This document shows positions 59,951 through 64,000 of a DNA stretch of 64,000 nucleotides, one piece after another. Numbering within the stretch: the first letter of the stretch is position 1; each line of letters begins with the position of its first letter. Origin of the DNA: Candidatus Latescibacterota bacterium (GTDB lineage: Bacteria > Latescibacterota > UBA2968 > GCA-2709665); assembly GCA_965222075.1 (NCBI GenBank), contig OZ244937.1, forward strand, positions 2,432,001 through 2,496,000, written 5' to 3'. Both the position numbers and the translations under genes were made by a program. The notes under the pieces are model-generated. The model made no database searches and was not told where the DNA came from. It saw only the letters and a list, made by a program, of their open reading frames with translations.

Positions 59951-60793
59951 TTATCCAGTAGGATAGGCACAGTCTGCATTTCCATTATCATAACTCCAAT
60001 AAACCATTGTTGCACTATCTTTTCCCTTTTCTTGATCAACCCTTTTCAACACTTCCAACACATTTGATTTGATCCCAACTTGCCCATCTGTGTTCTTCCT
60101 GGATAAACTCTCATAAAGGAATTCGGAATTCTCAAAAGGTCGAGACCCGCATTCCAATAATCCATCAGTGATCATGACTATCTGATTCTCGCTTTTTCTC
60201 AATTCTCTTGTTCCTGATGTATAACAGGGTACCGGCAAATCAAAAGAACTCACCTGCCCAATCCACTCATAATAGCTCCTTTGATTTAGAGCGTACTGGC
60301 CAAGATGGGCCAGCTCCGAATGGAACAAATAAATAAGGCAGTCTCCAATTGAAAACCACCATAAAAACCGATCTCTTTGAACACAGATCAAGCAAGCAGT
60401 TTCCCCTCGAATCTGTTTGCATTTGGTCTTAAAATCCTCCGAAGTGAACAGATCAATAAGAAGCCGGTGTAGTAATGAAAATAGCTTCTCTACGGGTAGA
60501 CCCAAAATGGCAGTAATGCGCTCTTCCTCTGATTCAATCATATCCAGAACCAATTTCGCGCTTTGAATGCTATTGTGAGCATCGAGCAATACTGCAAACT
60601 TCCAAGCCCCATTTTCTGCACACCAAACTAAAGCTCCATCCTCATTTTTGACAGCACCAGCGTCTGAATTGCCTCCATAACAGCCGACAATGACATCTCT
60701 ACAAGTTTGGATGGTGGGTTCATCCAAATACATATTATCACTGCCTAACCACCTAAATTTCAAGATGTTTCCATGATGCTCCGGAGTTTCCAT
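59951..60793 (-). CDS. PP2C-like protein phosphatase domain protein
   Basis: KNEDG, LLDAH, SIGDC, ITDGLLE, KDSAT metal-binding motifs; low GC. Confidence 0.75.
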   Translation of the reverse strand: METPEHHGNILKFRWLGSDNMYLDEPTIQTCRDVIVGCYGGNSDAGAVKNEDGALVWCAENGAWKFAVLLDAHNSIQSAKLVLDMIESEEERITAILGLPVEKLFSLLHRLLIDLFTSEDFKTKCKQIRGETACLICVQRDRFLWWFSIGDCLIYLFHSELAHLGQYALNQRSYYEWIGQVSSFDLPVPCYTSGTRELRKSENQIVMITDGLLECGSRPFENSEFLYESLSRKNTDGQVGIKSNVLEVLKRVDQEKGKDSATMVYWSYDNGNADCAYPTG

Positions 60794-60814
60794 TTACCTT
60801 GCCCTCCTTTAGCC

Positions 60815-63800
60815 GCTTCAATGAGGCCGCCTGCCTGTGCGGTGCACGCAGACAGGCGATCTAATGACCGCGGAAATAACCGGATACACGGACAGGGGGG
60901 TTAGGGGGGGAATGCTTCAATGAGGCCGCCTGCCTGTGCGGTGCACGCAGACAGGCGATCTAATGACCGCGGAAATGATGGATTCCGATTTCACTCCGGG
61001 GGTGACGCGATACCTGCTTCAATGAGGCCGCGATCTAATGACCGCGGAAATCCGAGGCACATATATCATACCCTGGCAAAAATCGTTGCTTCAATGAGGC
61101 CGCGATCTAATGACCGCGGAAATCCAGATGGACAGCACGGCTCATCGTGGTGGCTATATGCTTCAATGAGGCCGCGATCTAATGACCGCGGAAATGACGC
61201 CCCCGACGACCTCATAAAGAAATTCTACGACGAGCTTCAATGAGGCCGCGATCTAATGACCGCGGAAATGTGGGGTGGCAGCGGGCAAGAGGGGTATGAA
61301 GGCGATGCTTCAATGAGGCCGCGATCTAATGACCGCGGAAATACGAATTCGGATCCGCCTTCGGGGAGCTCGACGTCGCTTCAATGAGGCCGCGATCTAA
61401 TGACCGCAGAAATAGGCTGGGCAAGGGCAAGTCCGGCCCCATCCCTCATATGCTTCAATGAGGCCGCGATCTAATGACCGCGGAAATGTACTTTGGTATT
61501 CTGATTATGGCTTTGTTTCGGGGGCTTCAATGAGGCCGCGATCTAATGACCGCGGAAATGGATATGGACAGGTCAATACGAGAGGCGCTAATCAGGCTTC
61601 AATGAGGCCGCGATCTAATGACCGCGGAAATGGACCGGAAGGTAATCCATGACCGTATCGACAGACACGCTTCAATGAGGCCGCGATCTAATGACCGCGG
61701 AAATCCCACACACCGCCAGCACCCAGGCCGGCCGTCGTGATGCTTCAATGAGGCCGCGATCTAATGACCGCGGAAATCAGGATCACCAGCCGCAATGGGT
61801 ATGCCGGGTTGCCATATTGCTTCAATGAGGCCGCGATCTAATGACCGCGGAAATAAGCACCAGGAAGCACAAGACGCCACCTCCGAGAGGAGCTTCAATG
61901 AGGCCGCGATCTAATGACCGCGGAAATAGGGGTGCTTCGGGCCTTGCTGCCTTGCAACATATAGCTTCAATGAGGCCGCGATCTAATGACCGCGGAAATG
62001 CCCACCAACGCGATGCACACTTTACGCCAGGCATACGGCTTCAATGAGGCCGCGATCTAATGACCGCGGAAATAGGGCGAGGGAGAGGGGGGCGCGAATC
62101 AGTTCACTATGCTTCAATGAGGCCGCGATCTAATGACCGCGGAAATGTCGGGCCGGTGTTCCATGTCGAGCACGGTGCCCCCGCTTCAATGAGGCCGCGA
62201 TCTAATGACCGCGGAAATATGCTATGGTAATCTTTGAGCCGGCGAACGTTAAGTAGCTTCAATGAGGCCGCGATCTAATGACCGCGGAAATCACTTCAGA
62301 CCAGAACGAGAAGACCCGATATGACAAGCTTCAATGAGGCCGCGATCTAATGACCGCGGAAATATAGGTGGCCCCCTCAAGGCTATTCGCCATACCCTGG
62401 CTTCAATGAGGCCGCGATCTAATGACCGCGGAAATCGCTGTCGGGCAACTCACAATGGAGTAACTCTGCCTCGCTTCAATGAGGCCGCGATCTAATGACC
62501 GCGGAAATGACGTGAAATACGGCCTCAGCAACTTCGAGGACAAGACGGCTTCAATGAGGCCGCGATCTAATGACCGCGGAAATTCATCGTATGCCATTTC
62601 AACCCATTTCTCTTGACCTTGCTTCAATGAGGCCGCGATCTAATGACCGCGGAAATCACCCTCAGCCCGGCGGGCGCCGAGCCCTGGCCGTAGGCTTCAA
62701 TGAGGCCGCGATCTAATGACCGCGGAAATTCTTGGGGCCGGAGACGCTGCATCAGCTTCAGTGGTTTGCTTCAATGAGGCCGCGATCTAATGACCGCGGA
62801 AATTACACTATCGGATCGGCAAGCACAACGGGTTTCATTTGCTTCAATGAGGCCGCGATCTAATGACCGCGGAAATGCGGAAATTCTTGCGCTGGTTGCG
62901 TCGTTCCGCGACGTCGCTTCAATGAGGCCGCGATCTAATGACCGCGGAAATAATCTTTGGGGTGCGCCATGCTCACTCTCCGCTCTCGCTTCAATGAGGC
63001 CGCGATCTAATGACCGCGGAAATTTCAATGACGGTGTTCGCGACGGTGCCAAATTTGACGCTTCAATGAGGCCGCGATCTAATGACCGCGGAAATTTGGT
63101 GATTTATCAACTGGCTTTGAGTGACCTATTTCGCTTCAATGAGGCCGCGATCTAATGACCGCGGAAATGTATGGCGTAGAAATCGCCCCGGTGCTGACCA
63201 CCTCGCTTCAATGAGGCCGCGATCTAATGACCGCGGAAATGTGCTGATGGCCGAGACCCTGGAGGCGTGTATCAATCGGCTTCAATGAGGCCGCGATCTA
63301 ATGACCGCGGAAATTCGAAGTCGTCGTCGTCCTTATCGCAGGCGTAAAGGCTTCAATGAGGCCGCGATCTAATGACCGCGGAAATTTAATCTCATTCGCC
63401 GTCTTCGTCAGGCTGTTCAAAGCTTCAATGAGGCCGCGATCTAATGACCGCGGAAATCCTATGGCGTAGACCAGTTTCCCCCTCTGGGCGTCTTGCTTCA
63501 ATGAGGCCGCGATCTAATGACCGCGGAAATATGGCGAAAGCGAAAGCGGAAGCCTTGCATCAAAGCGCTTCAATGAGGCCGCGATCTAATGACCGCGGAA
63601 ATGCAGCTGGGGTCCGTCTCTGAGGTCATCGACAACAAGCTTCAATGAGGCCGCGATCTAATGACCGCGGAAATGCAGCTGGGGTCCGTCTCTGAGGTCA
63701 TCGACAACAAGCTTCAATGAGGCCGCGATCTAATGACCGCGGAAATGCAACCCGAAGCTCCGTTACCGGCGCAAGTCTGACAGGCTTCAATGAGGCCGCG

Positions 63801-64000
63801 ATCTAATGACCGCGGAAATCGTTCTTTGATTCTCTTTCATAACTTCGATCAGATAGCTTCAATGAGGCCGCGATCTAATGACCGCGGAAATGCGCCGGGG
63901 TGGGCCTTAATCCCGCTGAGCTCAAAGATGCTTCAATGAGGCCGCGATCTAATGACCGCGGAAATGCGGCAATTGCGCGCCGACCTTGTACGCCTGTTCC
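60815..64000 (-). CRISPR. CRISPR array, 43 repeats counted, truncated by window end; type I-G (I-U)-like repeat
   Basis: 36 bp repeat GCTTCAATGAGGCCGCGATCTAATGACCGCGGAAAT (reverse complement ends ATTGAAGC); spacers 35-41 bp; no cas genes in window. Confidence 0.99.

Follow-up and report, generated by a model that had tools for sequence, protein, structure and literature searches.

Why do two adjacent repeats of an otherwise regular CRISPR array carry the same 27-nt insert at the same position? The question arises near the right end of a 64,000-nt stretch of the Candidatus Latescibacterota bacterium genome (genome G000; contig OZ244937.1, G000:C1:2432001-2496000), hereafter the window, in whose coordinates positions are given unless they are marked as genome positions. 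Sequence reading and a repeat finder agreed on two 63-nt repeats, at 60815–60877 and 60914–60976, which are 100% identical to each other and in each of which the 36-nt consensus (GCTTCAATGAGGCCG followed by CGATCTAATGACCGCGGAAAT) is split by 27 nt lying between its two parts. In both cases the insert is CCTGCCTGTGCGGTGCACGCAGACAGG, located between ...GAGGCCG and CGATC... of the repeat, confirming as real the pair of enlarged repeats reported in a preliminary description of this DNA. We consider it likely that the insert is a copy of a dispersed, non-autonomous hairpin, that one such copy landed in a repeat of a type I-G array and was then copied to the neighbouring repeat, and that processing at the trailer end of the array was disturbed as a result.

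Two enlarged repeats in a type I-G array

The trailer-most repeat (60815–60877; CRISPR RNA (crRNA) sense on the minus strand) holds the first hairpin copy (60830–60856, plus strand), a variant with a GT loop, which sits between a G and a C of the repeat and, in the crRNA sense, interrupts the stem of the repeat within its 3′ arm. The second repeat from the trailer (60914–60976, minus strand) holds the other copy (60929–60955, plus strand), identical to the first in sequence, site and orientation. Both neighbouring spacers, on the minus strand like the repeats, are ordinary and differ from each other in sequence: S1 (60878–60913, 36 nt) has an insert-bearing repeat on either side, and S2 (60977–61015, 39 nt) encodes a crRNA that would receive its 3′ handle from the second enlarged repeat. 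From 61016 to 64000 (minus strand) the array continues with normal repeats, 41 ordinary 36-nt repeats following the two enlarged ones within the window; it ends at genome position 2496475, about 475 nt beyond the window, and is followed by the leader and the cas2–cas4/cas1 genes. Over its whole length in the genome the array comprises 50 repeats, of which 47 are perfect, one has a G-to-A change and two carry the insert. Within the window, CCTGCCTGTGCGGTGCACGCAGACAGG was found at these 2 sites only at up to 3 mismatches, with an expectation of 0 from 100 shuffles.

Repeats are difficult to assemble, and the insert, or its second copy, might be absent from the organism and owe its presence to an assembly or sequencing error. 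Contigs from the Logan collection, assembled from runs of three studies, were compared with the left flank and the enlarged repeats. The unique left flank was joined to the start of the repeat and the hairpin with 0 differences in runs X1 (60703–60844), X3 (60766–60844), X4 (60766–60877) and X5 (60766–60858), and one X1 contig (60829–60943) bridged the first hairpin and spacer S1 to the start of the second hairpin; runs X3–X5 yielded no contigs covering S1. The second copy was thus bridged in run X1 only, but the clean junctions in runs of three studies, the X1 contig running from one hairpin into the next, and the reality of the element at other loci, in frame within conserved genes, make an artefact extremely improbable. 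In runs X4 and X5, which belong to another study, the 5′ flank of the adjacent phosphatase gene was also seen to run at 60795 into unrelated sequence in place of the array, which suggests that some strains lack the array or have it at another place.

The host locus is a type I-G CRISPR-Cas system. The minus-strand genes to the right of the array are cas3g, cas8g1/csx17, csb1/cas7g, csb2 (cas5/6), cas2 and a fused cas4g/cas1g, all matched by NCBIfam models above their cut-offs except cas2, which was detected by Pfam. The position of cas4/cas1 and cas2, the non-coding stretch of about 185 nt between cas4/cas1 and the last repeat, and the minus-strand match of the best Rfam repeat model (CRISPR-DR16, below its gathering score) indicate that the array is read from right to left. 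On the left side, a PP2C-family phosphatase gene (59951–60793, minus strand), on the same strand as the array, has its start codon 21 nt beyond the terminal repeat, and there is therefore no room for a leader on that side. The same indications of orientation support the earlier placement of the leader on the right, with the enlarged repeats being the oldest ones at the trailer end. Related arrays in two other genomes (G009 and G021) have intact terminal repeats. A genome of the same genus (G001) contains, at another locus (L043 1351–1600), a small decayed array of 4 repeats of the same type, the last of which is missing 7 nt approximately where the hairpin is inserted in the array described here. 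The second array of the present genome (37-nt repeat, 87 copies of the repeat 20-mer, about 88 repeats) contained no such insert.

The hairpin family and its insertion sites

The element is an imperfect hairpin of 27 nt, made up of CCTGCCTGTGCG, 2 variable bases and GCACGCAGACAGG. At up to 3 mismatches the genome contained 39 copies (20 forward and 19 reverse; 0 in the control), and at up to 5 substitutions it contained 49. All 39 copies start with CCTG and end with CAGG, and they differ mainly in the loop at positions 13–14 (TC in 14, TT in 12, GT in 4, TG in 4, others in 5), only 2 differences being present in the remaining 25 positions across the whole set. A wider superfamily, CCTGYCTG...CAGRCAGG, gave 100 matches versus 0 in the reversed genome and included sister families of 25, 27 and 30 nt; longer or nested forms also exist. 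The imperfection of the stem is conserved, and on the strand with the crRNA sense of the array the two irregular pairs both turn into G-U; this strand folded at −14.6 kcal/mol (z = −3.35), compared with −10.2 kcal/mol for the opposite strand. Rfam contained no family for the hairpin, returning only sub-threshold CRISPR-DR16 and chance matches. Hairpins of the CCTGCC...CAGG and CTTGCC...CAAG families were found nested each within the other, in both directions (genome positions 4023658, 3043064, 818664 and 2646021). Family hairpins also often abut a separate repeat of about 130 nt, present in more than 50 copies in the genome (for example in the flanks of 854166, 1713100 and 3341949).

The preliminary description had put forward a miniature mobile hairpin as one of two readings and had staked it on the existence of further copies; with 39 copies in this genome, and the element present in 15 of 41 genomes (this one and 40 relatives), the reading as a miniature mobile-type hairpin is supported. 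One relative from another genus (G019) held 48–49 copies, nearly all with the GT loop seen in the CRISPR copies; a repeat of about 100 nt from that genome, discussed below, also occurs in contigs L090 and L124. A scan with one genome per species detected the same arms in at least 118 contig stretches. By their record titles, the listed matches came from Thermodesulfobacteriota, Nitrospirota, Verrucomicrobiota/Kiritimatiellae, Planctomycetota, Latescibacterota, Bacillota, Pseudomonadota, Methylomirabilota, Chloroflexota and others, including one short contig binned as Methanosarcinales; several of them lay on contigs longer than 50 kb, up to 5.9 Mb, and their flanks were mutually unrelated. Viral contigs contributed 17 stretches with the element. 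The plasmid collection contained one true match (26 of 27 bases, intergenic) on a plasmid of Sulfuricystis multivorans, a cultured betaproteobacterium. Literature searches with the 12–13-nt strings of the hairpin returned unrelated papers only, apparently through chance string matches, and searches of the literature on palindromes in CRISPR repeats or arrays and on in-frame, duplication-free palindromes found no account of this element. The accessible part of the article on Geobacter ‘multicopy sequences’ (PMC2700814) does not describe it, and the supplementary alignments of that article might bear on it.

Comparison of occupied and empty sites points to insertion of the hairpin as an exact unit. 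An AcrB-family gene of 1080 residues carries the hairpin in a region that measures 600 nt here versus 573 nt in all 25 relatives searched; in the orthologue from a genome of the same genus TCAC comes straight after CCGA, and here the two are separated by exactly the 27 nt. A UPF0236 transposase gene with the identical 27-mer aligned with an exact 27-nt gap to a 91%-identical paralogue, and paralogues of a xanthine dehydrogenase gene showed a gap of the same size, 27 nt. The CRISPR locus itself holds a third hairpin of this superfamily, a 30-nt sister form lying in frame in cas4/cas1 (genome positions 2498224–2498253, about 2.2 kb to the right of the window end), where it adds 10 residues, LPVRHRTQTG, to the Cas4 domain; this segment is absent from the orthologues in G009 and G021, the only two found in the 5 genomes searched. 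Two phage contigs carry the hairpin in frame in a GpA-type terminase, of which one homologue without that segment was found. No target duplication was seen at the empty sites available from these orthologue and paralogue comparisons. Judged from such alignments, the element enters DNA as an exact 27-nt unit, or a 30-nt unit in the sister variant, with no duplication of its target. At a site shared with G001 (genome position ~4466400; L219 in G001), a 27-nt hairpin in that genome corresponds to a 34-nt sister variant in this one, and these alternative forms suggest replacement or rapid remodelling in place. At another site shared with G001, 15 nt are added at the apex of the hairpin in the present genome.

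The target in this genome is an R^Y step, a purine followed by the complementary pyrimidine, after a C-S-S-R motif. Among 36 distinct genome sites, position −4 was C in 29, −2 was S in 35 and −1 was R in 35, and positions −1 and +1 were complementary in 32. Among 100 matches listed from the scan with one genome per species, −1 was G in 82, +1 was a pyrimidine in 81 and −4 was C in 40. The alternative view in the preliminary description, that a 25-bp element is flanked by a duplicated GC, was not supported: the GC letters are present, but A^T sites show inverted rather than direct flanking dinucleotides, which identifies the apparent duplication as a palindromic G^C step and not as a target duplication. 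The idea that the hairpin as a rule enters existing palindromes at their apex was rejected: flanks with complementarity at 8 or more of the 12 positions numbered 3 of 100, where 0.7 were expected, and 0 of 34 for this genome. An origin from the fused ends of a full-length insertion sequence (IS) was rejected as well, the solo half-sites being longer-looped or nested hairpins and not IS ends.

Many of the copies lie inside genes. The element contains no stop codon in any of its six frames, and 18 long open reading frames (ORFs) span copies, 13 of them with Pfam families, which include AcrB, molybdopterin dehydrogenase, LRR/fn3, FG-GAP and five kinds of transposase; transposase ORFs hold 9 of the 39 copies. 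In-frame copies were seen in AcrB, xanthine dehydrogenase, LRR/fn3, FG-GAP and transposase genes. Within the superfamily, ORFs of at least 250 aa contained 33 of the 70 elements whose length is a multiple of 3, compared with 5 of 30 elements of other lengths (Fisher p = 0.006). Random 27-nt windows fell in such ORFs in 81% of cases. These proportions indicate that the element is partly excluded from genes and that in-frame lengths survive there.

How two adjacent repeats may have come to carry the insert, and its predicted effect on processing

The pair in the array could have arisen by two independent insertions, the site in the repeat stem being preferred and separate transpositions having struck neighbours. 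The element does have a target preference, the repeat offers a G^C site with S at −2 and −3, as at 17 other G^C sites in the genome, and the locus was struck a third time, in cas4/cas1. However, 48 of the 50 identical repeats carry no insert, and for two random hits among 50 targets, 49 of the 1225 possible pairs are neighbours. The two copies also share the GT loop, which was present in only 2 of the 37 other copies (the sum of p² over loop types being 0.27). No CRISPR-like repeated context was found for about 100 listed copies from other genomes and phage contigs or for the other superfamily copies in this genome, and the arrays of G009 and G021 end intact. Given identical copies with a rare loop, in the same site and orientation, adjacent among 50 targets, in a family with no other copy found in a CRISPR-like context, and given related arrays that are clean, we regard independent hits as unlikely, and a single insertion that was subsequently copied is more likely. 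Of the two alternatives put forward in the preliminary description, copying of one insertion is accordingly the better fit, and site-specific targeting of the repeat stem by a mobile hairpin is not supported, given the untouched repeats and the lack of other family copies in CRISPR-like contexts.

We envisage that one hairpin copy entered a repeat of the type I-G array at the G^C step within the 3′ arm of its stem and then reached the neighbouring repeat by copying, not by an unrelated second hit. Copying may have proceeded by gene conversion or template switching between neighbouring repeats, by short-range re-insertion templated by the first copy, or by duplication of the enlarged repeat as spacer S1 was integrated. 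A simple duplication of the repeat-spacer unit is excluded, because S1 differs from S2. The route through spacer integration is weakened by what is described for type I-E systems, in which repeat-length rulers correct or shorten irregular repeats (PMC5039180).

Several points weigh against a mobile hairpin that was copied within the array. Mobility is deduced from presence and absence, and neither RAYT/Y1 searches of the genome nor the neighbouring genes at 97 loci revealed a mobilising enzyme (see below). The flank in the CRISPR repeat, GCCG, lacks the usual C at −4. In view of the type I-E rulers, it cannot be taken for granted that the adaptation complex would duplicate a 63-nt repeat faithfully. 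Most genomes carry 1–4 copies only, and in G019 the copies are embedded, about 48 times (L011–L040), as the core of a larger repeat of about 100 nt. The direct bridge to the second copy comes only from run X1, possibly the source sample, and this copy is for that reason less independently supported than the first. Insert-free repeats, which the preliminary description had proposed to look for in related arrays, were found at the ends of the G009 and G021 arrays; in scans of metagenome_contigs neither the hairpin within its repeat nor the plain repeat had a match (0 each), and no allele with 0 or 1 insert-bearing repeat turned up.

RNA folding predictions indicated what the insert may do to the array transcript. 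The normal repeat RNA formed an 8-bp stem (−13.2 kcal/mol, 86% of the ensemble), and the 63-nt repeat RNA folded around the insert (−25.4 kcal/mol), with the normal stem lost in both the minimum-energy and the centroid structures. The insert would replace the normal repeat stem in the transcript, and the Csb2 (Cas5/Cas6) nuclease would probably fail at both enlarged repeats, so that the two oldest crRNAs (from S1 and S2) would stay unprocessed or have a long 3′ tail. This prediction agrees with the earlier expectation that processing of the terminal crRNAs would change. An insert at the trailer end would cost little, and confinement of the effect to the two oldest crRNAs fits its survival there.

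The stronger folding of the crRNA-sense strand (−14.6 versus −10.2 kcal/mol), the location of the array and the PP2C gene on one strand, 21 nt apart, and a terminal repeat that is otherwise perfect and not decayed could also be read as signs of selection, with strong hairpins being kept because they shield the array transcript and the phosphatase gene from each other, as an RNA barrier or insulator, or because they act as a decoy for Cas proteins. No T run follows the hairpin, which for this reason is not an intrinsic terminator, dozens of unrelated sites, coding sequence included, carry the same element, and the related arrays lack it; a selected function of the insert in the array thus appears very unlikely.

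Three other features of the array were recorded. Spacers S38 and S39 (63603–63638 and 63675–63710) are identical and adjacent, indicating duplication of a repeat-spacer unit inside the array. Spacer S18 (62147–62182) matches a spacer of the second CRISPR array at 30 of 30 bases (genome positions 1676548–1676577). Spacer S25 (62657–62693) matches the organism's own chromosome at 36 of 37 bases (genome positions 4922490–4922526), which may be a self-target or a prophage target.

Mobilising enzyme, known elements and significance

The preliminary description called the hairpin REP-like, after the REP (repetitive, extragenic and palindromic) sequences mobilised by REP-associated tyrosine transposases (RAYTs), and suggested looking for a RAYT or an IS200-like Y1 transposase. 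Y1 genes of the IS200 kind are present, with end hairpins unrelated to the element, and no RAYT reached the cut-off. PF01797 matched the genome twice, at one intact and one broken IS200. The intact gene scored 148.6 bits with the IS200 model versus 32.8 bits with the RAYT model (cut-off 80), and the broken copy is IS200-like by its translated motifs and has a 25-nt hairpin relative 295 bp away. The RAYT model NF047646 gave 0 genome matches over its cut-off, and each of three Y1 loci checked for this, namely the intact IS200 and two weak Y1-like ORFs, was free of superfamily hairpins within 5 kb. The weak Y1/HUH-like ORFs, at genome positions 1858300–1859472 and 3242104–3242871, both score below the RAYT cut-off, and the former has a tandem duplicate and a flanking GC-rich repeat of its own that bears no relation to the hairpin. 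Across the 97 loci from other genomes and phages, no protein family recurred within 4 kb of the hairpin, the largest cluster being 4 related phage contigs. Orientation showed no bias by replichore (16/14 and 4/5).

In several respects the family resembles REPs and REPINs: both are short, GC-rich imperfect hairpins with tens of copies per genome, a conserved stem and a variable loop. A GTAG or CGTC tag is given as a feature of the REP/REPIN-RAYT class (PMC3733652). In contrast, the hairpin described here has no such tag and no RAYT over the cut-off in its genome, none of the three checked Y1 loci has a superfamily hairpin within 5 kb, and many of the copies are intragenic, at odds with an extragenic location; the term REP-like is thus not supported in its strict sense. 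A miniature inverted-repeat transposable element was rejected on the grounds that empty sites show no duplication of the kind made by a DDE transposase and that the solo half-sites include no full-length element with these ends. Like IS200/IS605 elements, the hairpin inserts without duplication just 3′ of a short motif (C-S-S-R, on the left flank only), but it consists of one 27-nt hairpin where IS200/IS605 elements have two distinct subterminal hairpins, it shows no replichore orientation bias, and the end hairpins of the genome's IS200 are unrelated to it. Membership among REP/RAYT elements, miniature inverted-repeat transposable elements or IS200/IS605 derivatives was accordingly rejected on the features tested.

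By behaviour, the closest known kind would be the small dispersed repeats (SDRs) of cyanobacteria. SDR4–6 of the Nostocaceae are reportedly dispersed palindromes of 21–27 nt that show insertion polymorphism and nesting and have no known transposase. SDR5 is described as inserting into the short palindrome HIP1, and HIP1-enriched genomes of cyanobacteria outside the Nostocaceae as yielding no SDRs (PMC5861425). The present hairpin likewise shows nesting in both directions between two families and targets a tiny palindromic R^Y step; unlike SDRs, with their restriction to the Nostocaceae, it occurs with identical arms in phage contigs and in contigs whose labels span many phyla, and it lies in frame in genes. 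Palindromic selfish DNA located in frame in protein genes, where it adds a short peptide, is also represented by the Rickettsia palindromic elements and the mitochondrial GC clusters; these have several times the length and are limited to a single lineage or organelle, whereas the present element has 27 nt and crosses phyla. Tn7-like transposons that target CRISPR repeats (PMC11837452) share with it the presence of foreign DNA inside a CRISPR repeat, but they are kilobase elements with dedicated targeting, and the 27-nt hairpin shows no sign of CRISPR-specific targeting.

A more speculative reading, to which we assign a small chance, holds that the hairpin is a self-contained single-strand DNA parasite without a transposase of its own, excised and inserted by a universal host enzyme, for which type IA topoisomerase would be a candidate; the CRISPR copies would be a by-product, the 63-nt repeat having been duplicated afterwards by Cas4/Cas1–Cas2 or by repair. 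Bacterial and archaeal topoisomerase I is described as choosing bonds for cleavage by a cytosine that lies 4 nt upstream (PMC3467081). The candidate was suggested by the C at −4 in 29 of 36 target sites (p about 4e-10), which matches this preference, and by the CAGG ends on both strands (CAAG in the nested sister family), which put a C at −4 of the other junction. If true, this reading would explain the identical arms across phyla and phages, the absence of a linked gene and the lack of target duplication, and the duplicated 63-nt repeat would test, in a natural setting, how type I-G systems control repeat length.

The CRISPR case itself is a near-neutral accident, and the 27-nt, duplication-free hairpin behind it is the more interesting finding. 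For the type I-G system, the pair of enlarged repeats offers a natural opportunity to ask if adaptation can copy an irregular repeat and if Csb2 can cope with a branched repeat stem. The lesson for array-finding software is that terminal ‘degenerate’ repeats may be intact repeats with an insert. By adding 9–10 residues to working proteins such as AcrB, Cas4/Cas1 and phage terminase, the element is both a source of small insertions and an annotation trap. The class of very small mobile palindromes, until now described in a single family of cyanobacteria, is extended to one 27-nt sequence found across many phyla and phages, raising the question of which enzyme inserts exactly 27 nt without duplication.

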